From: Microbacteriaceae bacterium | Lineage (GTDB): Bacteria > Actinomycetota > Actinomycetes > Actinomycetales > Microbacteriaceae | Length of the DNA stretch: 64,000 bases | NCBI GenBank assembly: GCA_044353905.1 | Contig: JBILBA010000005.1 | Location: 2,699 to 66,698, forward strand | Direction: 5' to 3' | Shown: one piece after another, positions 13,677 to 37,471 of the stretch | Position numbering within the stretch: position 1 is the first letter of the stretch | How the letters are laid out: each line of letters opens with the position of its first letter | The notes under the pieces: generated by a model | What the model was told of the DNA's origin: nothing | Databases searched by the model: none | Seen by the model: the letters and a program-made list of their open reading frames with translations, nothing else | Made by a program: the position numbers and the translations under genes

Positions 13677-14765
13677 TTACCAGCGAGGGCGCATGTCTGC
13701 AACCATCGGGCAGACGAACGGATCGGCGTTGTTGCTCAGTCCGACCTTGTTCAAATAGATGATGATCGCCTTGTACGAGGAAATGAGGTTCATCTCTACC
13801 AGCGTGATGTTTTTGTCTGCGCAGTAGGCTGCAACAATCTCGTGCGCGCGCTTGAGGTACGGGCGCGCCATCGACGGGAAGAGGTGGTGTTCGACCTGGT
13901 AGTTGAGCCCACCCATGAGGTTGTCCTTGAGCCAGCTTCCGCGAATGTTGCGGCTCGTAAGGACCTGGCGTTCAAAAAAGTCGAGTTTCACGTCGCGCGG
14001 AACGAGGGGCATTCCCTTGTGGTTCGGTGCGAAGGCGGCACCCATGAAGAACCCGAAAATCATCATCATGAAAATCCACAGCGCGATCGCCCACAGCCAC
14101 CCGAACATTAGTCCCATGATGACGTAGGGCGCGGTCTGACGGACCACCATCAGCGAGAACTCGAGAATTCGAATCCCGAGAGGCCGTTCGGTGCGACGAA
14201 GTGCCGCGAACGAGTCGAGCAACAGGTCAAAACCGGTCAAGAACAAGAGTGCGGGGAAAAGGTAGCCCTGGCGATTCGATATCCATCGTTCGATGCCGCG
14301 CTTCTCGTCGCGTGACTCGACCGTGAAACTCAAGACGCGAATCGCGATGTCGGGGTCTTCGCCAATCTGGTTCGGCTTTTGGTGGTGCTTGTTGTGCTTG
14401 CGCATCCAGAAACCGTAGGACAATCCCGCGAACAGGTTCGAGAGCAACAGCCCGGCCCAATCGTTCCACTTGTTGTTACGGAAAATCTGTCGGTGCGCAG
14501 CTTCGTGAGCGATAAAGCCGTACTGGGCTCCGAGAACTCCCAGCAAACCTGCGATGAGGAACGCGACGCCAATCACGATGCCGTCGTGAAGGTCGGATGC
14601 ACCAACGAAGCCACCGGCGACCCAGAGTCCAACTGCGAGAACAGAGATGACCGCGAGGCGAATGACGTAGAAGCTCGGGTTCTTTTTCAGCAGGCCCGCC
14701 GCTTTCACACGGGCGAGAAGCTCGGTGTAGTTGGACGTCAGCGGTGCGAGAAGGGTTGCTGTCAT
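13677..14765 (-). CDS. membrane fatty acid desaturase family protein
   Basis: 362 aa. Three histidine boxes (HEAAHRQ, HNKHH, QVEHHLFP) and multiple TM segments. Confidence 0.85.
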   Translation of the reverse strand: MTATLLAPLTSNYTELLARVKAAGLLKKNPSFYVIRLAVISVLAVGLWVAGGFVGASDLHDGIVIGVAFLIAGLLGVLGAQYGFIAHEAAHRQIFRNNKWNDWAGLLLSNLFAGLSYGFWMRKHNKHHQKPNQIGEDPDIAIRVLSFTVESRDEKRGIERWISNRQGYLFPALLFLTGFDLLLDSFAALRRTERPLGIRILEFSLMVVRQTAPYVIMGLMFGWLWAIALWIFMMMIFGFFMGAAFAPNHKGMPLVPRDVKLDFFERQVLTSRNIRGSWLKDNLMGGLNYQVEHHLFPSMARPYLKRAHEIVAAYCADKNITLVEMNLISSYKAIIIYLNKVGLSNNADPFVCPMVADMRPRW

Positions 14766-19737: not shown

Positions 19738-20112
19738 TGGTGGAGATGGGGGGAATTGAACCCCCGTCCAATACGAACAGTCGGAATCTTCTACGGGTGT
19801 AGTCAGTGAAGACGCTTTACTCGGCCCCGACCTTTGTCACTAACACCTAAGTCGACGAGCCCAGTATCAGTAAATGTCCCGCGAACCCCTGACACACAAG
19901 TTCGTAGCAAGCCCTCTAAATGGCGCCAGGATCCGAGCCGAAGGCGGAACTCGGTCTGACGGACTTCGATGGCGGCTTATTAGGCAGCGAGAGCGAAGTC
20001 GGTGCGCTTTGCGTTGGCACCTATTGGTTTGCAAGGGGCGTTTACGAGATAACCCTGCATCCTCGACCCGCTTCTTTCCGGCTTAGACGCACTGTCGAAA
20101 CCGATCATCCCC
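19738..20112 (-). ncRNA. ssrA: tmRNA (SsrA)
   Basis: Minus-strand 5' end is GGGGATGATCGGTTTCGACAG. 3' end is GGACGGGGGTTCAATTCCCCCCATCTCCACCA. Internal tag ORF GCC AAC GCA AAG CGC ACC GAC TTC GCT CTC GCT GCC TAA TAA encodes ANAKRTDFALAA. Adjacent to smpB. Confidence 0.95.
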
Positions 20113-23672: not shown

Positions 23673-24101
23673 CTACCCTTCGTCAGTTCCACCCCCGATG
23701 TTTGCCCGCGCGGACGCGGTCGCTTCCAAACGGAGTCGAATCGGGAAAAACTGGTTGCCGAGAGGCGGCGACCACACAGAACTCACCGTGACTCGAGCGG
23801 TCAATCGGTCTGGTGTCGTCGCGGCGACGAGTCGGATTCCATCACTCGCCTCGGTAACGAAAAGGCGCACCGCGCGCCGAACGTCGCGGTTCGTTAGCCT
23901 CACCGTCAGTGAAGTTCCGTCGAATTGTGCTCGGAGCGGGTTGAACGATTCGGCACCAACGAGCGCCGCCATGTCAGCAGTGGATTGCAGGTTTGTTCTC
24001 GCCAGCGCCAAATCCGTCGAGTCGATGATTCCCACGACCGCCACACCGCACAGAGCAACCAGCCCCGCGACCATGGGCAACAGGGAACCTCGATCGCTCA
24101 T
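23673..24101 (-). CDS. TadE-like pilus assembly protein (Rv3654c-type, helicase/secretion-neighbourhood family)
   Basis: 142 aa. N-terminal hydrophobic segment, then the ...QSTADMAALVGAE motif typical of the Rv3654c family. Confidence 0.65.
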   Translation of the reverse strand: MSDRGSLLPMVAGLVALCGVAVVGIIDSTDLALARTNLQSTADMAALVGAESFNPLRAQFDGTSLTVRLTNRDVRRAVRLFVTEASDGIRLVAATTPDRLTARVTVSSVWSPPLGNQFFPIRLRLEATASARANIGGGTDEG

Positions 24102-24532
24102 CGGTTCACCGACGTAATCGAGACGCGTGCCGTTGCGCTTCGGGACACCGTGACCCGAGGCGCAATGTCGATGCCGGGAAGGGCCGGAATGAAAAGCAAG
24201 GGGACGTCAAGATGCACGGTCAATTCGACAAGTGCCCCTCGGCGTAGACAGTTCCGCCTAGAGCAATCGAGTTCCCAACGAGGTGTGGCGTCGAGCACGC
24301 CGTGATCGTCGGCGACGAGAGTCGTGATGGCGCGAATTCGTTCCAGCCCGATGTCGGTCGATTCAGCCCACGTGAAAGCCCGGACGCCGTGCCGTGCGGC
24401 TGAGGTTGCCGCGAAGGTTGCGGACGCGATCTGGCTCGTCGTCACTGTCAGTGCGACGAGCGGCACGAGAAGGGCGACGGACGCGACAATGAATTCAATG
24501 CTGGCGCTCCCGCGCTCGGGCATCGTGCTCAT
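24098..24532 (-). CDS. TadE family minor pilin-like protein
   Basis: 144 aa. N-terminus ERGSASIEFIVASVALLVPL (TadE N-terminal motif). Overlaps the next gene by 4 nt. Confidence 0.7.
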   Translation of the reverse strand: MSTMPERGSASIEFIVASVALLVPLVALTVTTSQIASATFAATSAARHGVRAFTWAESTDIGLERIRAITTLVADDHGVLDATPRWELDCSRRNCLRRGALVELTVHLDVPLLFIPALPGIDIAPRVTVSRSATARVSITSVNR

Positions 24533-24582: not shown

Positions 24583-25974
24583 TTAGCGCGCGGCGGTTCG
24601 AATCAGTTTTTTGTTGACGAATTCGTCGAGCCCGAAGTGTCCCAGCTCACGGCCGAAACCCGATTTCTTGACTCCGCCGAACGGCAGGTCGACATGCGAG
24701 TCGGTGTTCTCGTTGATGTACACCATGCCCGATTCGAGTCGGTCGGCGACGTATCGTGTGTCCTCGGGGTTGGCCCCAAACACAGCACCAGACAGACCGA
24801 ATTCGGAACCGTTTGCCAGTTCGATCGCCTCGTCCTTGTTGGCCACTCGGTACACGACGGCGACCGGGCCGAACAGTTCTTCGCTGAATGCGCGGGCCGC
24901 GGGCGTGACGTTGGTCAGAAGCGTGGGCTCCATGAACGAACCGACGTCTCCGACACGGTGACCACCGGTAACGAGAGTCGCTCCGTTGGCGACGGCGTCG
25001 TCCACTTGTTCAATCAGTTCCTCGACTGCTCCGAGCGAGGACAACGGGCCCAGTTTCGTTTCTGGGTCGAGCGGATCCCCCACGGTGTAGGTCTGCAGTT
25101 GGGCCGCGAAGCCCTCGACAAACCGGTCGTACACGGAATCCACAACGATAAACCGCTTCGCGGCAGTACACGCTTGGCCCGCGTTGCTCATGCGTCCGGA
25201 CGCAGCGGCGGCGATGGTCTCGTTGAGGTTCACGTCATCGAGGACGATAAACGGATCACTTCCGCCCAACTCGAGCACCACCTTCGTGAGAGCACGACCG
25301 GCGGCTTGCGCGACTGCTGCGCCCGCCTTCTCGCTTCCCGTCAGTGAAACACCTTGAACACGTGCGTCGGCGATGATGGTTTCGATGTCGCGGCTCTCGA
25401 CGAACAGGTTGATGTACGCGCCGTCGGGCAATCCCGCGTCTCGGAAAATCTGCTCTTGTGCGAGCGCCGATTCCGGACAGTTACTCGCGTGTTTGAGGAT
25501 GATGGTGTTACCCAGAAGCAGGTTCGGCCCGGCGAAACGCGCCACCTGGTAGTAAGGGTAATTCCACGGCATGATGCCGAGAAGCACTCCGAGCGATTGC
25601 GACCGGACAATCGCCTGTCCACCCGACATCGGGTGCATGTCCTGATCGGCGAGGTGCCCGGGTCCCTGAGTGGCGTAGAACTCGTAAATGTCCCCGACGA
25701 ATCCTGCCTCGCCCCGACCCTGGCGAACCGGCTTTCCCATTTCGCGCGCGATGATGTCCGCGAGCTGATCTTTGCGCTCGCGATACAAATCCGCGACCCG
25801 CTGAAGCACAGCGGCGCGATCGGCGAGGGGTGTTTGACTCCACGCCGTGTGGGCCGCGTCGGCACGTGAAATGGCATCGGCGATGTCGGTCGGGGTGGCA
25901 CTCGGGAATTCGCGTTCGACGATTCCGGTGGCGGGATTGGTTATGGCGTAAGGCATACATTCATTGTCGTTCAT
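24583..25974 (-). CDS. NAD(P)-dependent aldehyde dehydrogenase, succinate-semialdehyde dehydrogenase-like
   Basis: 463 aa (ATG 25956 is an alternative start). Catalytic Glu (LELGGSDPF) and Cys (NAGQACTAAKRF). N-terminus ITNPATG. Confidence 0.8.
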   Translation of the reverse strand: MNDNECMPYAITNPATGIVEREFPSATPTDIADAISRADAAHTAWSQTPLADRAAVLQRVADLYRERKDQLADIIAREMGKPVRQGRGEAGFVGDIYEFYATQGPGHLADQDMHPMSGGQAIVRSQSLGVLLGIMPWNYPYYQVARFAGPNLLLGNTIILKHASNCPESALAQEQIFRDAGLPDGAYINLFVESRDIETIIADARVQGVSLTGSEKAGAAVAQAAGRALTKVVLELGGSDPFIVLDDVNLNETIAAAASGRMSNAGQACTAAKRFIVVDSVYDRFVEGFAAQLQTYTVGDPLDPETKLGPLSSLGAVEELIEQVDDAVANGATLVTGGHRVGDVGSFMEPTLLTNVTPAARAFSEELFGPVAVVYRVANKDEAIELANGSEFGLSGAVFGANPEDTRYVADRLESGMVYINENTDSHVDLPFGGVKKSGFGRELGHFGLDEFVNKKLIRTAAR

Positions 25975-26021
25975 CGACGAACAAAAAACCGTTTATCCCT
26001 AAACGATTCCCAGTATCGTAA

Positions 26022-26035
26022 TTGACAGTGGTCAA
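26022..26035. promoter_or_regulatory. inverted repeat TTGAC-AGTG-GTCAA immediately upstream of the GntR gene (candidate operator / -35)
   Basis: Read directly. Lies in the 64-bp divergent region between the ALDH and GntR genes. Contains TTGACA. Confidence 0.3.
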
Positions 26036-26038
26036 ACG

Positions 26039-26809
26039 ATGGGAGGTCCCGTGGGTGTTCTGAGCGGTGTGCAATCACAGGTCTTTCGACCGCTCCCCGA
26101 TGTCTTGCGTGCTGATGCGATTGTCGATCGGCTGTCGACCGCGATCTCTCTCGGGCTGCTGCGACGGGGCGAGCAGCTCCCCGTCGAGAACCAGTTGACC
26201 GCAATGTTCGGCGTCGCCACTGCGACCGTCCGCGATGCGCTTCAGACGTTACGGAACCAGGGGATCATCGAAACTCGTCGGGGGCGAAGCGGCGGAACTT
26301 TCATCATCGGCTCTCCCCACCCAAATCCTGATGCCCTACGAGAGAAGTTGCTGAATTTGTCCATGGCGGAATTGCGGGACATGGAGGACGAGCAGTTGGC
26401 CACCGCCCTCGCTGCCGTGCGACTCATCATCGGACGAGCATTCCCCCACGACCTCGACCGTCTTGAACGAATCGTTCGGACCATGGGCGAGACAACAACA
26501 ACCGAGTCGTGCATGCGGGCCGACAGTCGATTCCAGAGCGAACTTGCGGTGCTTTCCCAATCCGAGCGCCTCTTAGCAACACAGATGCGACTATTGACCG
26601 AATCGATTGAAATCATATGGACCGTTCTCTCAGTCGAAGCCGACAGGGAATGGACGATGAACGACCACTTGGCCATTGTGGCCGCCCTGCGCAACAGAGA
26701 CCTTCTCGCCGCTGAACGGGCTGTTCGGGAACACATCTCGCGAGACTTTTATCGCCTGGTTGCCGCCCGACTCGATGTTTTGTATCCCATTGGACCCACA
26801 AATGAGTGA
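26039..26809 (+). CDS. GntR family transcriptional regulator, FadR subfamily (FCD domain)
   Basis: 256 aa. wHTH segment GEQLPVENQLTAMFGVATATVRDALQTLRNQGIIETRRGRSGGTFI, then an all-helical C-terminal domain. Confidence 0.85.
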   Translation: MGGPVGVLSGVQSQVFRPLPDVLRADAIVDRLSTAISLGLLRRGEQLPVENQLTAMFGVATATVRDALQTLRNQGIIETRRGRSGGTFIIGSPHPNPDALREKLLNLSMAELRDMEDEQLATALAAVRLIIGRAFPHDLDRLERIVRTMGETTTTESCMRADSRFQSELAVLSQSERLLATQMRLLTESIEIIWTVLSVEADREWTMNDHLAIVAALRNRDLLAAERAVREHISRDFYRLVAARLDVLYPIGPTNE

Positions 26810-27527
26810 TGCCCGCGGCGACCCTGAACGCGCGAGTAGGGCGGTTGGGGACTGGTTTACCGCTGTCTACGACGACTTGACGATTATGGCGACGGCGTGC
26901 GAACGCGAACTTCGGAATTCGCGCGGTACGAAAGCCCGTTTGACGGAACGCAATCTGCGCGCAATTCAACCCGCCGCCACGGACTTCCTGGGTCGTCACG
27001 AAGTTCCCGTCGCGGCTGGAATCGTCGTCGGACCGAACGTGCTGGGAAACGATCTCGGGGCAGTCGAATGGTGGCGACGGGGTGACTCGGGTTCAACCCA
27101 ACGAATCGTGTTCAACCTGTCGCCCGACGACCCCGGTTTCTACGATTTTGTGACCTTCGAATGGTTTAACGAAGTCGTCTCGACCGGAAAGCCCGCGATT
27201 CAGGGTCCCTACCTCGACTACGCGGGGATGGACAAATACATTCTGACCGCGATGGTTCCGCTGTCGCTAGACGGCGTGCTCATCGGCACCGCGGGGTGCG
27301 ACACAGAGGTTCGCGAACTAGAACGGATCGTCATGCCGATTCTGCGCACAATTCCCGGCGACGCCGCGCTCGTGTCGAAATTCGATCGGATCATCCTCGG
27401 AAATTCGAGTCGCTTCCACGTGGGAAATCGTGTCGTCGCATTGCCGAAAGACGCGATCCGATGTGAAATCCCAGGACCTGAACTCGGCTTGCAACTCGTG
27501 GTGACGCCGCGAGCCGCGAATTTCTAG
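26802..27527 (+). CDS. standalone cytoplasmic Cache/PDC-like sensor-fold protein
   Basis: ORF 26676..27527 trimmed to ATG 26802, which overlaps the GntR stop (ATGAGTGA). No TM or signal peptide. GPYLDYAGMDKYILTAMVPLSLDGVLIGTAGCDTEV resembles the Cache core PYxDxxTgxxviTxxxPv...GVxgxD. Its TAG and the stop of the convergent hydrolase share the palindrome CTAG (27524-27527). Confidence 0.45.
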   Translation: MSDARGDPERASRAVGDWFTAVYDDLTIMATACERELRNSRGTKARLTERNLRAIQPAATDFLGRHEVPVAAGIVVGPNVLGNDLGAVEWWRRGDSGSTQRIVFNLSPDDPGFYDFVTFEWFNEVVSTGKPAIQGPYLDYAGMDKYILTAMVPLSLDGVLIGTAGCDTEVRELERIVMPILRTIPGDAALVSKFDRIILGNSSRFHVGNRVVALPKDAIRCEIPGPELGLQLVVTPRAANF

Positions 27528-28318
27528 CGCGCGGTTCGAACGAGTTTCGTTTGATCGACGAACGACTGGAACAGGGCGCGTCGGTCGGACGCTGAACCGT
27601 CATCGTCTTCGGGGTGCCACTGGACTCCGACGACCCATCGTGCGGACGGCATTTCCGTGCCCTCGACGATTCCGTCCTCGGCACGAGCGCTGACGACAAG
27701 TCCCTCGGCTACACGATTGACGGCTTGGTGGTGCCCCGAGCGAACCGCAACCCGATCGCGACCGAAAATCTCGCGAATCTTGCTGCCCGGTTCCAGAATG
27801 ACGGGTTCGTCCTTGAACATCGGGTCACCCGAGCCGCCACGATGCGGGTGGTAGTTCTCGATGTCGGGAATGAGGTCGCCGCCGAGTGCCACATTGAGCA
27901 ACTGTGATCCGCGACAGATGCACAGCATCGGTGCGTCCCGTGCGATCGTGGCGTTAATGATGTCGATGCAGTAGTCGTCCGCCGCGCGGTCGACCCCATA
28001 CTCGTGATTCACCGGTTCGTTGTGGCCGTAGATTCGTGCGTCGACGTCTCCGCCCCCCAAGAACATGACACCGTCGGCAAGATCGGCGATTGCCGCTGGG
28101 TCGAGCGGCGATTTGCTCGAATCCAAAAGAACAATCTTTGCCCCGACATTGTTCAGTTCGGTCAACGCGACACGAGTGAATCGAACGACGAGCCCAGCGA
28201 CTTCATCGGTCATTTCGGGGATGTTGAGCGACACGACGACCGCAACGGTCGGAGCGTCACTTGGCATCGACGCGTTGCCCTCGGGCATGACGTCGCTCGG
28301 AGCGATGTTGTGAGCCAT
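27524..28318 (-). CDS. gamma-glutamyl hydrolase, class-I glutamine amidotransferase / peptidase C26 (PuuD-like)
   Basis: Trimmed to ATG 28316-28318. Nucleophile elbow ICRGSQLLN and His-Glu pair in VQWHPE. Confidence 0.8.
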   Translation of the reverse strand: MAHNIAPSDVMPEGNASMPSDAPTVAVVVSLNIPEMTDEVAGLVVRFTRVALTELNNVGAKIVLLDSSKSPLDPAAIADLADGVMFLGGGDVDARIYGHNEPVNHEYGVDRAADDYCIDIINATIARDAPMLCICRGSQLLNVALGGDLIPDIENYHPHRGGSGDPMFKDEPVILEPGSKIREIFGRDRVAVRSGHHQAVNRVAEGLVVSARAEDGIVEGTEMPSARWVVGVQWHPEDDDGSASDRRALFQSFVDQTKLVRTAR

Positions 28319-28323
28319 GCGAC

Positions 28324-29022
28324 CTATTTTGCCAGAGGGAATGCCAAATCCGGCATCCAGGTGCTCCACACTTTTGCGAGTCGACCGTCGGCGATGACCG
28401 TGTCGAGCGCGCTGTTGAGTTCGCCCAACAGTTCCGCGTTGCCCTTTTGGACCCCGATACCCCAGGGGTTTCGGGTTTCGGCCGTGAAGGCGACGACGAA
28501 ATCCGGATCGTTGTCGGCGAGAGGGATCATGACCACGTCGTCATCAACGAACGCATCGACGGCGCCCGTTCGCAGTGCCGCAATCATGTCCTCGAAGACG
28601 CTCGGGCCCGTGAATTCGACAATCTCGGCTCCGACGATGGTCTGTGCGACCTTGAGGTTGGCGCTTCCCGCAATCGCACCGACCTTGTATCCGTTCATGG
28701 TGGTGTTCGAACGGGCGGGGTCGTCGGCACGAACCAACACTGTCTCGTTGAAGACCGCGTAGGGCTGCGTGAAGTCAACCAGTGCGATGCGCTCGGGAAT
28801 CATTCCCTGACCACACCAGACCGCGTCCACTTCGCCGCTCTGAACCATCGGAATCATGTTGTCCCAACCGGTGATGACCCATTCAATCTCGCGACCCATC
28901 ACACTCGCGAGGAGGTCGGCCGCGGCCGGCTCGTAACCCGTGCGGTGAATCCCGTCAGGGCTGAGGTTGAACAGCGGCGGCGCATCGGCGTCGATGCACG
29001 CGAGACGAAGCGCGGCGCTCAC
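28324..29022 (-). CDS. SBP_bac_3-like (amino-acid-binding-protein fold) protein without signal peptide
   Basis: Most plausible start is GTG 29020-29022, overlapping the stop of the GS-like gene as GTGA. The sequence begins directly with the mature-domain pattern LRLACIDADAPPLF...GYEPAAADLLA...W..MIPMVQSGEVDAV...ERIALVDFTQPY. No hydrophobic leader or lipobox is present, even with the longer ORF-track start. Confidence 0.6.
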   Translation of the reverse strand: MSAALRLACIDADAPPLFNLSPDGIHRTGYEPAAADLLASVMGREIEWVITGWDNMIPMVQSGEVDAVWCGQGMIPERIALVDFTQPYAVFNETVLVRADDPARSNTTMNGYKVGAIAGSANLKVAQTIVGAEIVEFTGPSVFEDMIAALRTGAVDAFVDDDVVMIPLADNDPDFVVAFTAETRNPWGIGVQKGNAELLGELNSALDTVIADGRLAKVWSTWMPDLAFPLAK

Positions 29023-30425
29023 GGGAGGGTCTCCCAGTACTGTGCGAACTCCCATTCGGTGATGACCCCGCAGTAGCGAGCCCACTCGTCTTTCTTCAGG
29101 TCGATGAAAACGTCCCGCAATTCAGCGGGGAACGCTTTCTTCAAAAGGGCACTTCCTTCGAATTGCACGATGGCGTCTCCTAGTGTCATCGGCATCAGGT
29201 CAAACTTCACGACCTTCGCCTTCTCATCCGTGAGGGGATCCCCCGAATTGATCTTTCGTTCCAGACCGTCCTCGATTGACGCGAGAAGCGCAGTGTGGGA
29301 CAGATAAGGATTAACGCTCGAGTCGGGCTGACGGTATTCCATTCGCCCGATCGACGAGATGCGGATCATTCCCGCGCGGGAATCGAGCCCCCACGAGGGC
29401 GAACTCGGGGCGAACTGCCCGGCGTCCCAGAACCGCTTGTACGAGTTGACGGTGCTCGCCATGATGACCGTCGAGTCCGCGGCGTGTGTCAGCATTCCAC
29501 CGACCGCCCAGCGCCCGACCTCGGAGAGGTGGATCTGGGTGTTACCCGGTTCGACACACGCGTTCGCCCCGTCCTTCCACAACGACAGGTTGTGGTGGCA
29601 TCCGTTACCCATCAAACCGTTGAACGGCTTGGGCATGAACGACGCCGTGACACCCTGCTCGCGCGCAACCTGCTTGCAGATCTGGCGGTACGTGACAAGA
29701 CGGTCCGAGGTGAGTTCGACCCGGTCGTACATCCAGTTGAGTTCCAACTGGCCGTCGTCTTCGTAGTCGCCCTCGATCATGTCGAGACCAAACGCCTGCG
29801 CGTAGCGAACAACCTGCTTGAAAATCGGGCGCATGCGTTCGAGGTTTTCCACCTGGTAGGCGGGGCTAGCGCCATCCTTTTTGATGACCTCGAGACCCGG
29901 TCCCGTCCACATCATTTCGGGTTCGGTGCCACTGCGAACTTCGTAGCCGGTACGGGCCGTGAATTCGTGGTGGGCGCGAATCAATAATCCGCGTGAATCG
30001 GTTTGCAAGGGTCGGCCGCCAACCTCAGCAAAGTGAGGGGGTTCGTAGGCGAGGCACAACATGCGTGCGACAGAGGTATCCCACGGAAGCACGACAAAGG
30101 TGTCCGGGTCGGGAAGCGCGATCATTTCGCGCGCGCCGATGCCGCCGCCGATGAGCTCGCCCTCGCGAGTCGACTGCAGGTCAGCCACGGCGGTTCGGTG
30201 AAGGGCGATGCCCTTTTCGAGGTTGCGTCGCAGGTGCCGAGCTGGCACCATCTTGGCCACAACTTTCGCGCCGATCGTGGGAAGCATGTAATAGATAAAT
30301 TCGACGCCGGCGGCGGCAATCTTCTGTTCGAGGTCTTTGATGACGTCGGGACGCATGTTCGACGCCTGGTGGCGAGAGAACGCGTCGTTGTCCGTCAGCG
30401 CACTCGTTCCGAGTTGGTCAACCAT
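29019..30425 (-). CDS. glutamine synthetase family protein (gamma-glutamyl-amine ligase candidate)
   Basis: Trimmed to ATG 30423-30425, preceded by AAGGAG. 468 aa. GS beta-grasp and catalytic domain patterns (FMPKPF.G..GNGCHHNLSLW, NSYKR, RISS.GRMEYR). Confidence 0.8.
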   Translation of the reverse strand: MVDQLGTSALTDNDAFSRHQASNMRPDVIKDLEQKIAAAGVEFIYYMLPTIGAKVVAKMVPARHLRRNLEKGIALHRTAVADLQSTREGELIGGGIGAREMIALPDPDTFVVLPWDTSVARMLCLAYEPPHFAEVGGRPLQTDSRGLLIRAHHEFTARTGYEVRSGTEPEMMWTGPGLEVIKKDGASPAYQVENLERMRPIFKQVVRYAQAFGLDMIEGDYEDDGQLELNWMYDRVELTSDRLVTYRQICKQVAREQGVTASFMPKPFNGLMGNGCHHNLSLWKDGANACVEPGNTQIHLSEVGRWAVGGMLTHAADSTVIMASTVNSYKRFWDAGQFAPSSPSWGLDSRAGMIRISSIGRMEYRQPDSSVNPYLSHTALLASIEDGLERKINSGDPLTDEKAKVVKFDLMPMTLGDAIVQFEGSALLKKAFPAELRDVFIDLKKDEWARYCGVITEWEFAQYWETLP

Positions 30426-30469
30426 TGGTGGGACTCCTTTGTCCTTGTTTTCGGTGGGGTGAATCGGGG

Positions 30470-30658
30470 TCAGTCGGTGACCAGGATGGCTTGCATTGGG
30501 CACACGTCAGCCGCTTCGTCGACATCCGCCCGCAACGAGTCGTCGGGGTTCTCATCGAACTGCAGAACGCCCTTGTCGTCGAGGCGGAAAACGGTCGGCG
30601 CAGAGAAGGTGCACTGACCGTGGTTGTCGCACTTCGCGCGGTCTACAGAAACGTGCAT
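30470..30658 (-). CDS. small single-cluster ferredoxin (P450-associated type)
   Basis: 62 aa. MHVSVDRAKCDNHGQCTFSAP...VCPMQAI (CxxxxxC...CP). AAGGAG RBS. Confidence 0.85.
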   Translation of the reverse strand: MHVSVDRAKCDNHGQCTFSAPTVFRLDDKGVLQFDENPDDSLRADVDEAADVCPMQAILVTD

Positions 30659-30684
30659 GGTGTTCTCCTTGGTGTTGTTTGAGG

Positions 30685-31878
30685 TTATCGCTTGTCGAAC
30701 GCGAGCGGAAGATGCACGGGCCCTGTGTTACCCGAATCAGGCATCCATTCGTCCTGCCCGTTGACTCGAATGTTGGTCATTCGTTGGGACAGGGTCCTAA
30801 ACGCAATCGCCATGTCCATTCGAGCAACGAAGTGCCCGAGGCAGTGGTGCATCCCGCCGCCAAAGCCATAGTGCGGCGCTCGTTCGACGGTGATGTCAAT
30901 TCCGGGGTTCGGATAGGCAGCGGGGTCGTTCCCGCTCACCTGGGTAAAGAAGTGAACCGTCGAGCCGGCTGGCGCGTGAAGGTCTTCATAATCGAAATCG
31001 ACAACGGCTTCGCGCGTGACCCACGTGGTCGTCGGATTGGATCGCATGACTTCCTCGACCGCGTTCCGAGCAAGTTCGGGGTTCTTCGCGAGGAGCTCCC
31101 ATTGGTCGGGGTTTCGCATCATTGTCTGAATACCGAGACCGAGTTGATTGCGCGTCGTGTCCATTCCTCCGAAAATGAGAAGGCACAGCGCGTTTCGCAG
31201 TTCATCGTCGCTCAGGCTGTCACCGTCTCGGTTCGCTTCAACGAGGCGCGTCACGAGATCGTCGCGCGGGTTCGCCTGGCGATCGGCGATGAGCGCTTCA
31301 GCGTATCCATAGAGTTCGGCGAGCGCCGCCTCGATCTCGGGCAGGTCTTCCTTGATCGTGATTCCCAGCGCCAGACCAATCGAACTGGAAATTCGGGCGA
31401 TGGTCGGCCATTCACTTTCGGGTATCCCCGTCAGAATGCATAACACGCGTGTTGCGTACGGCTCGGCAAAGTCGTTGACGTACTCGAACTCGCCGTTGTC
31501 GATGATCGCGTCGACAATTTCAGCCGCAAGTTTTTCGAAGCGTGGAACATACGCTTCGATGTGGCGGAACGAGAACGCCGGATTGAGCATGCGCCTGATC
31601 CGGTGGTGGTCGTCGCCTTCGAGGACCAACAGGCACTTGGTCCACCAGTCGTGGAACAATCCGGTGTGCACTCCGTTGTGGTCCGGCCATTTTCCGCTGC
31701 CCTGGCTCAAGCGGGTGTCTTTGAGAAGGATGCTGACGTATTCGTGCCTTAGGACGGCGAACCCGTAATTGGTTGTCGCGAACCAGTGCTGTTCTCGAGC
31801 GTTGCGAACCGCCTCGGAATGCATCGCAAAGGACGGATCTGAAATGTCCAGATGCGGTACAGCGATATCCGTTGGCAT
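30685..31878 (-). CDS. cytochrome P450
   Basis: Trimmed to ATG 31876-31878 (GAGG RBS). I-helix LIFGGMDTTRN, ExxR (EEVMRS) and heme loop FGGGMHHCLGHFVAR. Confidence 0.9.
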   Translation of the reverse strand: MPTDIAVPHLDISDPSFAMHSEAVRNAREQHWFATTNYGFAVLRHEYVSILLKDTRLSQGSGKWPDHNGVHTGLFHDWWTKCLLVLEGDDHHRIRRMLNPAFSFRHIEAYVPRFEKLAAEIVDAIIDNGEFEYVNDFAEPYATRVLCILTGIPESEWPTIARISSSIGLALGITIKEDLPEIEAALAELYGYAEALIADRQANPRDDLVTRLVEANRDGDSLSDDELRNALCLLIFGGMDTTRNQLGLGIQTMMRNPDQWELLAKNPELARNAVEEVMRSNPTTTWVTREAVVDFDYEDLHAPAGSTVHFFTQVSGNDPAAYPNPGIDITVERAPHYGFGGGMHHCLGHFVARMDMAIAFRTLSQRMTNIRVNGQDEWMPDSGNTGPVHLPLAFDKR

Positions 31879-32100
31879 TAGGTGAACCTCATTGTTCGAG
31901 CGACTCGGTCGCAAATGGTTGTTGTGGTAAATCTTATGCCAATTTGCTAAATCCTGCATTGATGAATGATTTAGTGAAAAACGCTGTTTCGTAAAACATC
32001 TATCTCTGCAGAAAAAAACGCGCTATGTTTGCCCCAGCACAACGAGGTGCGACCAATGCCGGTGGCACCTCGCGATTTACACAACAATCGAAAGGTCACA

Positions 32101-33570
32101 ATGGCTACGTCAGACAAAGCGCAACTTAGCGCCCTCGGATACGAGGGTTCCTATAACCGCTCCATGACCGTATGGAGCACAATGGCGCTCGGGTTCACCT
32201 ACCTGTCGCCGCTCGTCGCAATTTACGCACTGTTCGGCCTCGGCCTCATGACCGGCGGACCGGGCTCCATCTTCTGGATCCTCATCGTCGGTGGTGGGCA
32301 GATGCTCGTCGCGCTCGTCATGGGTGAGGTCGTCTCGCAGTTCCCCATCGCTGGTGGAATCTATCCCTGGATGCGCCGCCTCGCCGGCCGCCGATCCGCA
32401 TGGCTCGCCGCGTGGGTCTACGTCTGGGCGATGCTCGTGACGATCGCGTCGGTTGCTCAATACGGCACCGGCTTCCTCGCCACCGTTCTTGGTGTGACCG
32501 AGGTCTCGTCAGAACTCACCCTGATCCTTGCGATCAGCCTCCTCGTGGTGGCGCTTCTCGTCAACCTCGGAGGAACCAAAACCCTCGCTCGTATCGCGAC
32601 CATCGGTCTGGCTGCAGAGCTGGTCGGTGTCGTCGGACTTGGTCTTTACCTGCTTTTGTTCGAACGCCAGAACGAGTTCAGCATCTTCACCGAAGGCTTC
32701 GCGTCGGCTGATTATGGCACCGCGTTCATGGGTGCAGCCCTCGTCGGTCTGTTCATGTTCTACGGCTTCGAGGCCTGTGGTGACGTCGCTGAAGAAGTTG
32801 ACGACGCTGCCCGTGAGGTACCGAAGGCCATGATTCTCACCATCCTCATCGGTGGCGTCTCGGCCCTCGCATCGTTCGCGGGATACGTTCTCGCCGCATC
32901 GCCCGAACTCCTCGCCGCGACCGCAGCGGGAGAGAACGCGGACCCCATCGGAACGATCCTCGCGGACGTCCTCGGAGAAACCGGCGCACGCCTGTTCCTC
33001 GTGGTTGCTGTCGTTGCATTCATCTCGTGCTGCTTGAGCCTGCAGGCTGCTGCAAGCCGCTTGCTGCACTCGTTCGCGCGCGACAAGATGCTTCCCGCCA
33101 GCGGATGGCTCAGCCAGATCTCAGAGCGCAGCAAGGTCCCGACCAACGCGCTGCTCGTCGCGAGCATCATCCCGATGTTGCTCTGTGTCGTCATCTACGC
33201 CAACCCGGCGTCGTTGGTTCCGATTACCGCATTCGCAGTGCTCGGAATTTACATCGCGTTCCAGTCGGTCGTCCTCGCGTCGCTCATCCAGCGATTCCGT
33301 GGATGGAAGCCAGCCGGACCGTGGACCCTGGGTTCGTTCGGACTGATCATCAACATCGCCGCACTCGCTTACGGAATCTGGGCAATCTCGTGGTTGCTCC
33401 AGCCCGGCGTGAGCGGTGACTGGTTCATCGACAACATCTCGCTCATCGGCGTGGTGGCGGTATTGGTCCCCGGTGGCCTTTACCTGCTCGTCGCTCGTCC
33501 TCACCTTCGCTCGAAGGCTCCGTATTCGGACGCCATCGAGGTCGCGAAGAAGATGCGCGCAGGCAGCTAA
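32101..33570 (+). CDS. APC-superfamily amino acid/amine permease
   Basis: Trimmed to ATG 32101. 489 aa with about 12 TM segments. Divergent from the P450 operon across a 222-bp AT-rich spacer. Confidence 0.8.
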   Translation: MATSDKAQLSALGYEGSYNRSMTVWSTMALGFTYLSPLVAIYALFGLGLMTGGPGSIFWILIVGGGQMLVALVMGEVVSQFPIAGGIYPWMRRLAGRRSAWLAAWVYVWAMLVTIASVAQYGTGFLATVLGVTEVSSELTLILAISLLVVALLVNLGGTKTLARIATIGLAAELVGVVGLGLYLLLFERQNEFSIFTEGFASADYGTAFMGAALVGLFMFYGFEACGDVAEEVDDAAREVPKAMILTILIGGVSALASFAGYVLAASPELLAATAAGENADPIGTILADVLGETGARLFLVVAVVAFISCCLSLQAAASRLLHSFARDKMLPASGWLSQISERSKVPTNALLVASIIPMLLCVVIYANPASLVPITAFAVLGIYIAFQSVVLASLIQRFRGWKPAGPWTLGSFGLIINIAALAYGIWAISWLLQPGVSGDWFIDNISLIGVVAVLVPGGLYLLVARPHLRSKAPYSDAIEVAKKMRAGS

Positions 33571-33616: not shown

Positions 33617-33997
33617 TTAAGGAGCCTCGCGAAAAGCACGTCCCGTCACATCGGTCTCGGCGATGGCCAGCCACGGTCCGATTGCGGGCACTGCGAGGCG
33701 AATCGTGATCGAGGCGATTACCTCTCCCACTGACTCATCCGACGTGACGGACACGGAACGAACCAGCGACGCGGCGATACCGCTGGTCACAAGTTCGGTG
33801 GCACGGTCAACGCCCTCGGAATCAACCGTGTCCGCCAGCGCGGCGTGTGCCGCTCCGGCAATCGCCGAATCGATTGCCACCGCTCGAATGTGCGCGACAA
33901 AGGCAATTTGAAGCACGGTCAGCGCAACCGCAATGAGCAGAACACCGACCAGCACGAACTCGACCGGGGCACTGCCACGTTCGAGCCCGCGTGTCAT
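33617..33997 (-). CDS. TadE family minor pilin-like protein
   Basis: Trimmed to ATG 33995-33997 (MTRGLERGSAPVEFVLVGVLLIAV). ATGA overlap with the upstream small pilin-like ORF. Confidence 0.7.
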   Translation of the reverse strand: MTRGLERGSAPVEFVLVGVLLIAVALTVLQIAFVAHIRAVAIDSAIAGAAHAALADTVDSEGVDRATELVTSGIAASLVRSVSVTSDESVGEVIASITIRLAVPAIGPWLAIAETDVTGRAFREAP

Positions 33998-34155
33998 ATC
34001 GACAGGACGCGATCGATGGCGTTGTTGAAGACGTCGCCGAGGGCCGGGCCGGCCATCGCCCACATCACGACGACGAGTCCCGCCGTCATGAGAGTGATGA
34101 GGACCCAGCCAGGAACATCGCCGCGGTCAGAGGAATTACGAGTGAAGTTCGACAT
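33994..34155 (-). CDS. 53-aa hydrophobic Flp-position small protein (divergent pilin candidate)
   Basis: Below the ORF-track size cut-off. My translation is MSNFTRNSSDRGDVPGWVLITLMTAGLVVVMWAMAGPALGDVFNNAIDRVLSI. It sits between tadC and tadE, where flp normally lies. No canonical G/xxxxEY motif is visible. Confidence 0.45.
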   Translation of the reverse strand: MSNFTRNSSDRGDVPGWVLITLMTAGLVVVMWAMAGPALGDVFNNAIDRVLSI

Positions 34156-34206
34156 GACCCCATCGTGGGGCTCGCGCGGTCGTGGCGCGAAACTTATCCC
34201 CAGAAC

Positions 34207-34599
34207 TCAGGAGAGTGCGGTCTTTTTTCGTTCGTCACCGATACGAATCGCGTAGAACACGGTTCCTGCGATGACGGCCACGGCGGCGACGCGGAACACG
34301 ATATTGAGTGCTTCGATGGCGGGGCTAAACGGCGAATTGGCGAATTGGCCGTCACCAGCCAGCGGGTCGTAGGCGTACACGAGAAGCGACACGGTTGCGA
34401 CGCTGAGAACAATCGCCGCGGCGAGTGACATCCACGTCAGTTTCGGAATGGTGACACGGCTGATGAGGCGCGTCGTAATCGTCAGCAACACCACCATCAC
34501 GATCGCCGCACCGCCCTGAAGGGCGTCCACCCAACCGATCAGGCTGAACAAAACGGCGATGACTTGGATAAAAAGTGCAATGGTGAGGCGAAATCTCAT
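34207..34599 (-). CDS. hypothetical 130-aa four-TM membrane protein embedded in the tad operon
   Basis: Trimmed to ATG 34597-34599, preceded by GAAAGGA. Four hydrophobic helices. No family recognised. Confidence 0.5.
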   Translation of the reverse strand: MRFRLTIALFIQVIAVLFSLIGWVDALQGGAAIVMVVLLTITTRLISRVTIPKLTWMSLAAAIVLSVATVSLLVYAYDPLAGDGQFANSPFSPAIEALNIVFRVAAVAVIAGTVFYAIRIGDERKKTALS

Positions 34600-34645
34600 G
34601 ATGTCCTTTCCGACACCACAAGTATTGCGCGAAATCCAGCGAACA

Positions 34646-35317
34646 TCACAGAGCAATCGAGCCGAGTGCGGTCAGCCCGGGGAACACCGCCATAACAACG
34701 GTGACGGGAAGGATCGCAAAAACGAGCGGGAACATCATCAGGGTCTCTTTCGCGCTGGCGGCTTCGAGCAGTCGCCGGCCGGCGGCCTGTTGTTCGTCAT
34801 CGGCCAGTGCGCGAATGATCTCGGTGAGCGGCGTTCCGTATTGCCGGGCCGTGAGGACATGGTCGATTAGTCGAGACCAACCCTCGTGCGCGACACGCGC
34901 ATCGCTCGACTGAAGTGCGTCGGATACCGAGACACCGAGAGCGATTTCGGCCACGATGAATCTGCACTCGTCGGCCAGTTCACCAACGCCGCTTGTTGCG
35001 ATTCGTTCGAGCGCAGTGGGCACCGACATTCCGGCAGAGACACAAAGACCGATCAGGTCCAGTGCGCCGGGCAGTTCCTCGGACACCGCGCCGCGACGAC
35101 GACGCCGATTGACCATGTCGTTGATGACGCTCGCGGGAAGTCGGAACACGAGCCCGAGGGAACGCAGTGCGCCGTTCCGCTCGTCGATCGGGGTTCCTGC
35201 GATCGCGACGTCTCGAATGTGCGGAGCGAGGCGGATCGCGACGCGTGACGCCGTCGCCCCCGACACAATCACGAACAGCCCGAGACCAAGCAGTGCCCCG
35301 AGCGCAACCTCAATCAT
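34646..35317 (-). CDS. tadC: type II secretion system F family protein (TadC-like)
   Basis: 223 aa. N-terminal TM, cytoplasmic T2SSF domain (LPGALDLIGLCVSAGMSVPTALERIA) and C-terminal TMs. Confidence 0.75.
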   Translation of the reverse strand: MIEVALGALLGLGLFVIVSGATASRVAIRLAPHIRDVAIAGTPIDERNGALRSLGLVFRLPASVINDMVNRRRRRGAVSEELPGALDLIGLCVSAGMSVPTALERIATSGVGELADECRFIVAEIALGVSVSDALQSSDARVAHEGWSRLIDHVLTARQYGTPLTEIIRALADDEQQAAGRRLLEAASAKETLMMFPLVFAILPVTVVMAVFPGLTALGSIAL

Positions 35318-36164
35318 GGAGCGCCCCGATCAACCAGCGGGCGGGTTCACGCAGTGTTCCCAGCGCGCGCATGGCGACATACGCGACCACCGTGGTCCCC
35401 GCCGACGCCACAATCAGAATCGTTCCCGCCGCGGTGGAATAGGCCTCCCTGTTTTCGGGCCTGCTCACCAACAGCGCGAGCACGATCCACGGGGAAACGA
35501 CGCCGAGGGTGGCCGCGTGCCGCACCCACGATTGTCGAGACTGTGCCTCGCGCCTCATGGCGGATTCCCGGCGAACCGAACGACCGAGTTCTGTCAACAC
35601 CGCCGGAAGTTCCGTACCTCCGAATTCGCGGGCGACGACGATTGCTTCGACTACACGATCGGCGATCGGGTCGGCGAGCGCCCGTTGCAGTCGCCGTAGC
35701 GCAGTGTCGACATCACTGCCGCGCCGCAGATTGACTTCGAGCTCCGTCCAGGCGACGCGCCATTCCTTCGGAACCATTGCGGATGCCGCGATCATCGCGT
35801 CGGTCAAGGTCGCACCGGAACGAAGTGCGACCCGAATTGAATCAATAACGTCGGGCCACAGCGCACGTGCGCGCTGCCGGCGGCGATCACGAGCACTCGC
35901 CAACGCAACTATCGGCACCCCGCACCCCACTACAAAGCCGAGCGGAGCGACACTGGGAAGCGGAATCACGGTCGCGGTCAGCGCGCCGGCAATCATCGCG
36001 ACTGTTGTCATCACGGCGCCGATGATCGCCAGCGGGACGCCGGCGAGCCCCGCTTCGTCGAACCAGGTGCGAACGGAACGAGGGCGCCGCACACCCCGAG
36101 GAAGAATCAACAGGGCGATCCCGATTCCCAGGAGAACCCCGCAGGCGATTATCGCTGCGCCCAC
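35310..36164 (-). CDS. tadB: type II secretion system F family protein (TadB-like)
   Basis: 284 aa. WPDVIDSIRVALRSGATLTDAMIAAS and terminal TM pairs. Overlaps both neighbours. Confidence 0.75.
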   Translation of the reverse strand: MGAAIIACGVLLGIGIALLILPRGVRRPRSVRTWFDEAGLAGVPLAIIGAVMTTVAMIAGALTATVIPLPSVAPLGFVVGCGVPIVALASARDRRRQRARALWPDVIDSIRVALRSGATLTDAMIAASAMVPKEWRVAWTELEVNLRRGSDVDTALRRLQRALADPIADRVVEAIVVAREFGGTELPAVLTELGRSVRRESAMRREAQSRQSWVRHAATLGVVSPWIVLALLVSRPENREAYSTAAGTILIVASAGTTVVAYVAMRALGTLREPARWLIGALHD

Positions 36165-37240
36165 AGCGATTCCATTGTGAGTGCGCCCGAATCGCCCGAT
36201 GCGACCGGACGAGCGATGTCCACCACGCGCCGCTGGCCGTCCCTGTCCATGCGGCAGTGAACCACGAGGTCAATCGTCGCAAGAATCGTCGATGTGACGA
36301 ACCCCTCCGACACCCCTCCCGCAAGTTGACACAGGGTCACCAGTTTGCGAATTGCATCGGCGGCCGAGTTCGCGTGAATGGTGCACAGCCCCGGAATCCC
36401 CGAATTGAGGGCGACGAGTAGGTCGAGAGATTCGTCGCCGCGAACCTCACCGACGACGAGCCGCGTCGGTCGCATTCGAAGTGCCTCCTTGACCAGTCGT
36501 CGCAGCGTGATTTCGCCCACCCCGTCGAGGCTTGCTCCGCGAGATTGCATGCCGACGGTATCCGGATGACGTGTTGCGATTTCGAACGTTTCTTCCACCG
36601 TCACGATTCGTTCCGACTCGTCCAGTTCCGACAACAGCGCACACACCATCGTGGTCTTACCCGCCTGGGTTGCTCCTGACACCAGCACGGTTTGCCCCTC
36701 GAGCATCGCCGTTCGAAGAATGCGTTTCGCTTCTGGGGCGATCGCGCCATGCGCGACCAGGTCGTCGAGCGATCGGACCGACGTCGAGAACTTTCGAATG
36801 TTCAAGCTCCAGTGTTCCTTGGTGATCGGCGGAATGACGACGTGCAAACGCGAACCGTCCGGCAGAGACGCATCGACGAACGGTTGGGAAACATCGACTC
36901 GGCGACCGCTGCGCCTTAACATCCGTTCGACGAGAGTCCGCACGTCCTCGGGCGAAAGGTCAGCGGGAATTCGCTCGTGGCGCCCCGAACGTGCCACAAA
37001 CACCGCAGTCGAGTCGTTAATCCAGATTTCTTCGACGGTTGGATCATCGAGGTGGGATTGCAGAATCCCGAATCCCGTGACGCGGTGCGCGACATCGGAT
37101 TCGTGAAACTCAGTCGACGTCGCTTCGCCCAGTGCGCGTTCATTGGCGCGTTGAACCTCTGACGCGATCGCCCGCCCAAGGTCATCCCCCGACATCACCG
37201 CACGGCGGACCCGGCCGACAATCGAATCGGTGGAGGTCAT
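36149..37240 (-). CDS. tadA: TadA/CpaF-family secretion ATPase
   Basis: 363 aa. Walker A GATQAGKTT, Asp/His boxes (VTVEETFE, RLVVGEVRG, TIHANS). Confidence 0.88.
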   Translation of the reverse strand: MTSTDSIVGRVRRAVMSGDDLGRAIASEVQRANERALGEATSTEFHESDVAHRVTGFGILQSHLDDPTVEEIWINDSTAVFVARSGRHERIPADLSPEDVRTLVERMLRRSGRRVDVSQPFVDASLPDGSRLHVVIPPITKEHWSLNIRKFSTSVRSLDDLVAHGAIAPEAKRILRTAMLEGQTVLVSGATQAGKTTMVCALLSELDESERIVTVEETFEIATRHPDTVGMQSRGASLDGVGEITLRRLVKEALRMRPTRLVVGEVRGDESLDLLVALNSGIPGLCTIHANSAADAIRKLVTLCQLAGGVSEGFVTSTILATIDLVVHCRMDRDGQRRVVDIARPVASGDSGALTMESLWAQR

Positions 37241-37374: not shown

Positions 37375-37454
37375 GCGGGTGTGGTGAAATTGGTAGACAC
37401 GCAGGATTTAGGATCCTGTGCTTCGGCGTGTGGGTTCGAGTCCCTCCACCCGCA
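37375..37454 (+). tRNA. tRNA-Leu (anticodon TAG)
   Basis: Acceptor GCGGGTG/CACCCGC. Anticodon arm CAGGA-TTTAGGA-TCCTG. Long variable arm. T-arm GTGGGTTCGAGTCCCTC. CCA is not encoded. Confidence 0.9.
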
Positions 37455-37471
37455 CAATCGAGAGGAACACA

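Follow-up and report, generated by a model that had tools for sequence, protein, structure and literature searches.

A predicted actinobacterial amine-catabolic gene cluster that joins a glutamate–amine ligase and a CYP151-like cytochrome P450 to a leaderless protein with a substrate-binding-protein fold and a soluble Cache-like protein

Bacteria possess several gene clusters for the handling of amines, and the enzyme logic at issue here is already known from the Puu pathway of Escherichia coli, the Ipu pathway of Pseudomonas sp. KIE171 and the pip/mor cytochrome P450 loci of mycobacteria. Here, we describe a gene island at positions 24583–33570 of a 64-kb window of contig JBILBA010000005.1 (“the window” refers throughout to this whole stretch of DNA), from a freshwater Microbacteriaceae lineage that is represented by metagenome-assembled genomes only. 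The island encodes a cytochrome P450, a small ferredoxin, a ligase resembling glutamine synthetase (GS), a protein that has the fold of a substrate-binding protein (SBP) but lacks a leader, and a hydrolase of the Peptidase C26 family, together with a permease, a GntR regulator, a soluble Cache-like protein and an aldehyde dehydrogenase. Judged from its sequence, the cluster is rather more probably than otherwise a catabolic or nitrogen-scavenging pathway, in which an imported amine would be glutamylated and then oxidised by the P450; cyclic secondary amines are the favoured substrates.

The island shares with the Puu pathway of E. coli the principle of gamma-glutamyl protection of an amine, and its ligase, C26 hydrolase, aldehyde dehydrogenase and APC permease belong to the same superfamilies as their Puu counterparts. 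However, the identities are 22–32% and no equivalog cut-off is reached; where Puu has the flavin oxidase PuuB, the island has a P450 and a ferredoxin, and where Puu has PuuR, the island has the GntR regulator and the Cache-like protein. The Ipu pathway of Pseudomonas sp. KIE171 and the ipu-like clusters of Arthrobacter aurescens TC1 (which have the order glutamine amidotransferase (GATase)–P450–ferredoxin–ferredoxin reductase (FdR)–IpuC) also consist of a permease, a gamma-glutamylamide synthetase, a monooxygenation step and an amidotransferase-like hydrolase, but they use other P450 and ligase lineages, Ipu converts a primary amine to an amino alcohol, and no SBP-fold or Cache partner has been described for it. 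The mycobacterial pip/mor loci comprise the CYP151 P450 PipA or MorA, a 3Fe-4S ferredoxin, the reductase MorC, the GntR-type regulator PipR and an adjacent GS-like open reading frame (ORF). They resemble the island in their CYP151-like P450, small three-cysteine ferredoxin, adjacent GS-like gene and GntR-family regulator, and differ from it in their MorC-type reductase, as there is no reductase in the window. To our knowledge, published descriptions of the pip/mor loci name neither an SBP-fold nor a Cache protein, and give the GS-like ORF no role in glutamylation. Finally, no solved structure and no curated model comes closer to the ligase than that of gamma-glutamylmethylamide synthetase (GMAS, the “type III” GlnT of the N-methylglutamate pathway), and in both proteins the flap glutamate is replaced by an aromatic residue; the identity, however, is 33%, the score is under the cut-off and the island has no genes for N-methylglutamate synthase or dehydrogenase.

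The features of the island, in window positions, are:

24583–25974, minus strand: NAD(P)-dependent aldehyde dehydrogenase resembling succinate-semialdehyde dehydrogenase (SSADH) (Pfam Aldedh 457 bits; NADP-SSADH model of NCBIfam 491 bits, cut-off 730)
26022–26035, no strand: 14-bp perfect palindrome TTGACAGTGGTCAA, candidate operator, in the divergent intergenic region between the aldehyde dehydrogenase and GntR genes
26039–26809, plus strand: GntR regulator with FCD ligand domain (Pfam GntR 53 bits, FCD 61 bits)
26802–27527, plus strand: stand-alone, soluble dCache-like protein of 241 amino acids (predicted fold; weak Pfam matches)
27524–28318, minus strand: predicted gamma-glutamyl-amide hydrolase, Peptidase C26 / class-I glutamine-amidotransferase-like, of the “C26a” type (Pfam Peptidase_C26 155 bits)
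28324–29022, minus strand: leaderless SBP_bac_3-fold protein of 232 amino acids (Pfam SBP_bac_3 91 bits)
29019–30425, minus strand: predicted GS-like, ATP-dependent glutamate–amine ligase (Pfam Gln-synt_C 240 bits)
30470–30658, minus strand: single-cluster ferredoxin of 3Fe-4S type, 62 amino acids (Fer4_15 48 bits)
30685–31878 (alternative start 31959), minus strand: cytochrome P450, CYP151-like (Pfam p450; heme motif FGGGMHHCLG)
32182–33570 (alternative ATG 32102), plus strand: APC-superfamily permease, presumed amine importer (AA_permease_2 135 bits)

All nine genes, with the motifs and gene spacings given in the original prediction, were recovered from the ORFs, from Pfam and NCBIfam matches and from independent gene calls: metagenome contigs that encode an identical GS-like protein with near-identical neighbours were called with the same genes and the same starts, and likewise with the GntR and Cache-like genes overlapping by 8 nt. 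Gene callers place the start of the GntR/FCD gene at about 26051. By ORF coordinates, the distances from P450 through ferredoxin, GS-like and SBP-like to C26 gene are 26, 44, −4 and 5 nt; the GntR and Cache-like genes share 8 nt, the Cache-like gene converges on the C26 gene, and the permease gene is divergent from the P450 operon. A promoter scan of the island region returned 0 sites, terminator-like sites were at chance (8 found versus 9.3 expected) and an Rfam search found no RNA element within the island. Given these tight spacings and the lack of any internal promoter match, terminator excess or Rfam element, the five minus-strand genes are taken as one operon.

The reading of the cluster as a glutamylation system depends on the ligase. 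The GS-like protein scores below the cut-off of each curated model with which it was compared: 274.6 bits (cut-off 469.6) for GMAS (TIGR03105), 219 (429) for GlnA and 199 (650) for PuuA (NF045547). The first of these scores, together with the missing N-methylglutamate genes, rules the protein out as a GMAS equivalog. Its best PDB match is GMAS (7cql, 175 bits), the score for Mycobacterium tuberculosis GlnA1 being 102 bits. Alignment with E. coli GlnA reveals that the residues for metal, ATP and glutamate are retained (E129, E131, E212, E220, H269, R321, R339, E357 and R359) and that all four residues of the ammonium site are replaced: D50 by E, S53 by L, Y179 by A and the flap residue E327 by F. 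The last three of these replacements are present in 8/8 family members aligned, and the D50 position is variable in the family. The ligase shares 40% identity with the GS-like proteins that accompany P450s in Paracoccus and Ruegeria, 28% with GlnA of E. coli and 22% with PuuA. A neighbour-joining tree groups it with the actinobacterial P450-linked proteins, then with the GS-like proteins of the Paracoccus and Ruegeria plasmids, and then with GMAS, leaving GlnA and PuuA outside. These comparisons support a glutamate–amine ligase rather than an ammonium-assimilating GS: both the loss of the ammonium site and the placement in the tree away from GlnA and PuuA agree with the original prediction that the protein is not a GlnA. 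As the ammonium site has been lost, and as the gene co-occurs strongly with the other genes of the cluster, a bona fide nitrogen-assimilating GS is disfavoured.

The extent of this co-occurrence was determined by a scan, with the GS-like alignment, of one genome per species, which yielded 391 relatives; loci were fetched for 80 of these. Counts refer to the 56 loci that have at least 6 kb on both sides, with homologues counted within 8 kb of the GS-like gene. The P450, the GntR regulator and the SBP-like gene are each present in 56/56 loci, the SBP-like gene always directly after the GS-like gene; the Cache-like gene is present in 55/56, the C26 hydrolase in 54/56, the APC permease in 51/56, the ferredoxin in 37/56 and an aldehyde dehydrogenase orthologue (at least 50% identity) in 20/56. 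The SBP-like and Cache-like genes are core members of the cluster, and the ferredoxin and the aldehyde dehydrogenase are variable members; the co-conservation originally proposed for P450, ferredoxin, GS-like, SBP-like and C26 genes thus holds, with the ferredoxin as the variable element.

The 56 loci span Microbacteriaceae, Micrococcaceae, Brevibacterium, Leucobacter and Pseudonocardiaceae, and the genes are co-conserved in at least five actinobacterial families. Fetched genome loci come from freshwater Microbacteriaceae, Cryobacterium, Arthrobacter, Paenarthrobacter, Paeniglutamicibacter, Brevibacterium, Leucobacter, Pseudonocardia and Haloechinothrix, and loci from Gulosibacter, Nocardia and Streptomyces, which were fetched separately, have the same gene set. 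The gene order is shuffled in Nocardia and in Streptomyces (GS–SBP–C26–P450–ferredoxin–FdR in the latter), but the 4-nt overlap between the GS-like and SBP-like genes is retained in both; thus, the SBP-like gene travels with the ligase and not with the P450. Outside the actinobacteria, the P450s of two proteobacterial plasmids (L086, Paracoccus sp. TOH plasmid p2; L089, a Ruegeria plasmid) are 48–50% identical to that of the window and adjoin two different GS-like genes and amidotransferase-like hydrolases, accompanied by either a flavoprotein resembling cytochrome P450 reductase or a 2Fe-2S ferredoxin and an ATP-binding cassette (ABC) transporter. Neither locus has an SBP_bac_3 or Cache gene, and they are a separate variant of the same glutamylation–P450 logic.

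One accessory member of the core set is the SBP-like protein. The start of its gene overlaps the GS-like stop by 4 nt, and the ORF begins at the first strand of the mature fold, with no signal peptide or lipobox. Orthologues are 230–250 amino acids long and all begin at the ligase stop codon, which leaves no room for a leader in any of them. The AlphaFold model (pLDDT 94.6) has a type-II periplasmic-binding fold, which Foldseek aligns at a TM score of 0.85 to Arg/Gln-bound AncQR and to GlnBP. The invariant residues include R78 (for the alpha-carboxylate), D161 (for the alpha-ammonium, within an invariant DDD), W53 (the stacking aromatic), D11, C9 and C70. Despite the match in fold, the protein was rejected as the SBP of an ABC transporter: it has no leader and no lipobox, and no ABC transporter genes (permease or ATPase) lie beside its gene in any lineage examined. 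The simplest reading of the model is that of an intracellular binder of alpha-amino acids, for which a gamma-glutamyl-amide, i.e., an N5-substituted glutamine, would be the candidate ligand. An exhaustive search of representatives with the SBP-like protein found more relatives that are short and of leaderless size, and no fusion of GS with SBP or of P450 with SBP.

Two of the invariant residues are cysteines. C9 and C70 are conserved in 33/33 aligned orthologues and occupy pocket positions of amino-acid-binding proteins, one lying two residues before the equivalent of GlnBP D10 and the other at the equivalent of A67. Their presence hints at a function beyond plain binding, which might be catalysis, redox sensing or the covalent capture of an aldehyde.

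The other accessory member of the core set is the Cache-like protein. Its Pfam matches are weak (24 and 20 bits, both under cut-off), and the original assignment is borne out by the predicted fold: the AlphaFold model (pLDDT 90.9) has dCache ligand-binding domains as its best PDB matches, the top Foldseek matches being McpU with putrescine, CqsR with serinol or ethanolamine, the histamine receptor TlpQ, and PctC with gamma-aminobutyrate (GABA). Unlike membrane dCache receptors, it has no hydrophobic or transmembrane segment and no output domain, and it is translationally coupled to the FCD-type GntR regulator. Mapped onto PctA, D167 (D173 of PctA) and Y137 (Y144) are invariant, W121 (W128) is nearly invariant, and the position of R126 of PctA is taken by F119. 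Retention of the amine-contacting residues with loss of the carboxylate-binding arginine is the mark that separates amine sensors from amino-acid sensors [see PMC10589655, from which the residue roles are taken]; the assignment was made on these mapped residues rather than on a full AM_motif score. On the basis of the model, the protein is proposed to be a cytoplasmic amine sensor. The GntR/FCD regulator encoded next to it shares 38% identity with an FCD regulator from plasmid pGKT2 of Gordonia KTR9, whose gene precedes the P450 and xplAB genes there. The palindrome TTGACAGTGGTCAA at 26022–26035, which is the sole zero-mismatch occurrence in the window, recurs in conserved form neither ahead of the P450 gene nor in relatives, and a survey of palindromes in 20 related loci revealed no shared operator.

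A literature search found no mention of the invariant pairing of a ligase with a leaderless SBP-fold protein, or of a GntR regulator with a soluble dCache protein, and both pairings appear to be undescribed. This agrees with the original statement that the SBP-like and Cache-like members are not part of any described version of the pathway, and both are core genes.

The best PDB match of the P450 is AurH (CYP151A; 3p3l, 237 bits). The P450 encoded ahead of xplB/xplA on plasmid pGKT2 of Gordonia KTR9 (presumably cyp151C) shares 55% identity with that of the window, and GMOLON4_437 of Gulosibacter molinativorax shares 53%. According to the authors of the Gulosibacter study, GMOLON4_437 is in turn about 53% identical to PipA of Mycobacterium smegmatis or MorA of Mycobacterium HE5 [PMC9477822]. 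By its nearest relatives, the P450 is therefore likely to be CYP151-like, which is a likeness rather than a formal family assignment, as the link to PipA and MorA runs through GMOLON4_437.

The ferredoxin gene lies 26 nt downstream of the P450 gene, and its product has only three cysteines, in the arrangement CxxHxxC...CP (CDNHGQC...CP). No homologue of FdR, of an FprA-like reductase or of flavodoxin was found anywhere in the 64-kb window. In relatives from Cryobacterium, Arthrobacter, Brevibacterium, Haloechinothrix and Streptomyces, an FdR gene directly follows the ferredoxin gene, and the clusters of Leucobacter, Gulosibacter and Nocardia have a divergent flavodoxin and FprA-like reductase; in the Pseudonocardia cluster, neither FdR nor the flavodoxin/FprA-like pair was found. 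As relatives carry one or the other kind of reductase beside the P450, the lack of a reductase reflects a loss confined to this freshwater Microbacteriaceae lineage and is not a general trait of the system. Thus, the missing reductase remarked on in the original prediction is indeed absent from the window, but this does not extend to the system as a whole. The interchangeable redox modules of the cluster appear to be undescribed.

The C26 hydrolase is 31% identical to E. coli PuuD, and its ICRG and GVQWHPE motifs align with the catalytic motifs (Cys-His-Glu) of PuuD; its score against the PuuD equivalog model (NF008471) is 63 bits, the cut-off being 266. Outside the freshwater lineage, most relatives have a further C26 gene, a paralogue of the first, right after the SBP-like gene; the lineage of the window has one only. 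The paralogous hydrolases are about 35% identical to each other, and Gulosibacter adds a third GATase (L026 12045–13756; L091 4668–5447 and 11159–12734; most loci of L026–L084). The aldehyde dehydrogenase is 32% identical to PuuC, and the closest curated models are those for NADP-SSADH. The permease is 25% identical to PuuP, and its best NCBIfam matches (TIGR03428 and TIGR00907) are both under cut-off. No homologue of PuuB or PuuE was found in the 64-kb window; this, together with the PuuA (199 of 650 bits) and PuuD (63 of 266 bits) scores, rules the island out as an orthologue of the E. coli Puu pathway.

Among the relatives, the Nocardia locus (L096) is flanked by a class-III aminotransferase, an aldehyde dehydrogenase and a copper amine oxidase (1–2105 and 12471–14453). 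As the aldehyde dehydrogenase and the aminotransferase adjoin the cluster, an omega-amino acid fits as its product, and these flanks are consistent with such a product and with a broader amine-catabolic neighbourhood.

Expression data are available for one orthologous cluster. In G. molinativorax ON4T, the genes GMOLON4_433 to 441 (L091, CP028426 429715–449151) have the order permease, C26, flavodoxin, FprA-like reductase, P450, GS, SBP-like, C26, GATase, and every gene has a log2 fold change of 5.4–7.5 (i.e., 40- to 180-fold) on molinate versus lysogeny broth (LB) [see Table S8 of PMC9477822]. Molinate, which releases an azepane ring, is hydrolysed to azepane-1-carboxylate; in the authors' interpretation, the P450 oxidises the ring and the GS serves nitrogen assimilation [PMC9477822]. 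This co-induction, which includes the SBP-like gene, counts in favour of the pathway proposed below. The published annotation lists the flavodoxin as “nitric oxide synthase” and the SBP-like gene as “hypothetical protein” [PMC9477822].

The pathway that we favour can be set out as follows. An amine without any other chemical handle would be imported by the APC permease and coupled by the GS-like ligase, at the expense of ATP, to the gamma-carboxyl of L-glutamate. The P450, supplied with electrons by the 3Fe-4S ferredoxin and a reductase whose gene would lie elsewhere in the genome, would then hydroxylate the gamma-glutamyl-amide at the carbon adjoining the nitrogen; in the case of a cyclic secondary amine (pyrrolidine, piperidine or azepane), the ring would open to give a gamma-glutamyl-omega-aminoaldehyde. 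The aldehyde dehydrogenase and the C26 hydrolase, acting in either order, would convert this to glutamate and an omega-amino acid. The SBP-fold protein, whose translation is always coupled to that of the ligase, would most likely bind the gamma-glutamyl-amide via its alpha-amino-acid end and assist the ligase as a carrier or sequestering partner, and the soluble dCache protein and the FCD-type GntR regulator would together sense the amine and control expression. The sequence of glutamylation, hydroxylation, deglutamylation and oxidation that had been proposed from the DNA alone is supported by the ligase residues and by the co-conservation; for the order of the steps after hydroxylation, and for the substrate, we rely on inference.

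Several points weigh against this pathway. Its steps are predicted from sequence, and the proposed role of the SBP-like protein is derived from its fold, its retained residues and its gene coupling only. The aldehyde dehydrogenase, which most relatives lack, is closer to SSADH than to a gamma-glutamyl-aminoaldehyde dehydrogenase; the window has neither a reductase nor an aminotransferase for the omega-amino acid. Furthermore, the Gulosibacter comparison was of molinate minimal medium with LB [PMC9477822], and as the strain can use molinate as its sole source of nitrogen, the induction could reflect nitrogen limitation and not the cyclic amine.

The alternative that survives best, although we regard it as rather unlikely, is a route for polyamines or primary diamines, i.e., a Puu pathway in which a P450 has replaced PuuB. 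Gamma-glutamyl-putrescine (or its cadaverine or spermidine equivalent) would be oxidised beside the free or secondary amine to a gamma-glutamyl-aminoaldehyde, which the PuuC-like aldehyde dehydrogenase and the PuuD-like C26 hydrolase would convert to GABA. The island would suit such a replacement, as it lacks a PuuB homologue yet has PuuA-, PuuC-, PuuD- and PuuP-like genes; moreover, the structure closest to the Cache-like model is that of the putrescine receptor McpU, the permease orthologue of Gulosibacter is annotated as puuP and adjoins an agmatine deiminase, the P450–GS clusters of Proteobacteria carry an ABC transporter or two GS-like genes, and polyamines would be plausible natural substrates for a freshwater planktonic actinobacterium. 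However, the low identities to the Puu proteins and the unmet equivalog cut-offs speak against it, the hydrophobic residues L, A and F in the ligase pocket would favour an apolar amine over one with a further charged amino group, and the nearest characterised relatives of the P450 are linked to cyclic amines. We also know of no precedent for oxidative deamination by a P450 in bacterial polyamine catabolism.

Distinctly less probable is an alkylamine route of the Ipu type, in which ethyl-, propyl-, isopropyl- or butylamine would be glutamylated and hydroxylated at an unactivated carbon, and the C26 hydrolase would release an amino alcohol, to be oxidised further elsewhere. Ipu itself is a precedent for the same enzyme logic, the A. 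aurescens TC1 clusters have the gene order given above, and Arthrobacter relatives of the island share the order P450–ferredoxin–FdR–GS. However, no alcohol dehydrogenase lies in or beside the cluster in any lineage examined, and the CYP151-like affinity of the P450 favours cyclic amines. A search of a plasmid collection that does not include the TC1 plasmids gave no Arthrobacter plasmid homologue of the window P450 at E ≤ 1e-40, a result that carries no weight against this route. It is very improbable that the genes are a non-functional association of a nitrogen-assimilating GS paralogue with unrelated neighbours, or a route for the biosynthesis of an N5-substituted glutamine, even though the Gulosibacter authors assigned the GS to nitrogen assimilation and databases annotate the SBP-like protein as “periplasmic”, because the ammonium site is lost, the genes co-occur in 54–56 of 56 loci over several families and orders even where their order is shuffled, the SBP-like protein has neither a leader nor ABC partner genes, and the hydrolase, the permease and the repressor-type regulator speak for catabolism rather than biosynthesis.

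Taken further, the glutamylation–P450 pathway leads to a more specific proposal, which is tentative and which, with all of its parts together, we consider doubtful. The SBP-fold protein would be an obligate cytoplasmic partner of the ligase (a carrier of N5-substituted glutamine or, given its two invariant pocket cysteines, an enzyme) that passes the glutamylated amine on from the ligase to the P450 or the hydrolase, or shields it; the dCache protein and the FCD-type GntR regulator would form a two-protein cytoplasmic amine sensor; and the whole would be a distinct and widespread actinobacterial system, from whose redox partners and remnants the xplAB locus would have been built.

The last part of this proposal concerns plasmid pGKT2 of Gordonia KTR9, the host of the genes xplAB, by which hexahydro-1,3,5-trinitro-1,3,5-triazine (RDX) is degraded. 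The locus resembles the island in the FCD regulator described above (38% identical), a Cache protein (31%), the P450 (55%) and a truncated GS-like protein (55%, residues 4–397), all upstream of xplAB. It differs in being a remnant, which lacks SBP, C26 and permease genes and whose truncated GS gene directly adjoins XplB, and in that XplA and XplB act on a nitramine explosive. The remnant (L085) lies at pGKT2 156809–163820, and the regions with which it was compared are L082 6586–8510, L091 5586–7388 and L096 4633–6499. Of the redox partners found in the Leucobacter-type clusters, the FprA-like reductase shares 39% identity with XplB, and the flavodoxin shares 43% with the flavodoxin domain of XplA. 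Thus, by sequence comparison, xplAB may have been assembled from the redox partners of the cluster.

If the proposed pathway is correct, it would explain the GS-like genes that lie beside the long-known P450s for cyclic amines, as the real substrate of these P450s would be the glutamylated rather than the free amine. It would also add two unrecognised components: an intracellular SBP-fold partner, in which the SBP fold would serve a new purpose, and a stand-alone cytoplasmic Cache sensor, which would be an unusual form of Cache signalling. The occurrence of the cluster in abundant freshwater Microbacteriaceae as well as in soil genera would bear on the use of dissolved organic nitrogen by bacterioplankton, the RDX-degrading genes of Gordonia KTR9 would gain a plausible ancestral context, and the gene set is present in cultivable hosts (Paenarthrobacter, Leucobacter and Gulosibacter).

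The island interrupts a Tad/Flp pilus locus (window 23673–24532 and 33617–37240): one flank has TadA, TadB, TadC and two small pilin-like genes, and the opposite flank two TadE/G-like genes. The position differs between related genomes, where the island is shifted by one gene (L023, L052) or lies outside the tad genes (L021); this suggests repeated rearrangement or insertion here. No transposase, tRNA or repeat scars were found at the site within the tad locus, and the base composition of the island is not anomalous within the window; thus, horizontal transfer has no compositional support. Beyond the TadE/G-like genes lie prfB, ftsE, ftsX, smpB and, immediately downstream of smpB, the gene for tmRNA (19738–20112, minus strand), with the tag peptide ANAKRTDFALAA. 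A gene for tRNA-Leu(tag) adjoins the tad ATPase gene (37375–37455, plus strand), and one for tRNA-Met lies at 46557–46633 (minus strand); these three RNA genes are ordinary features.

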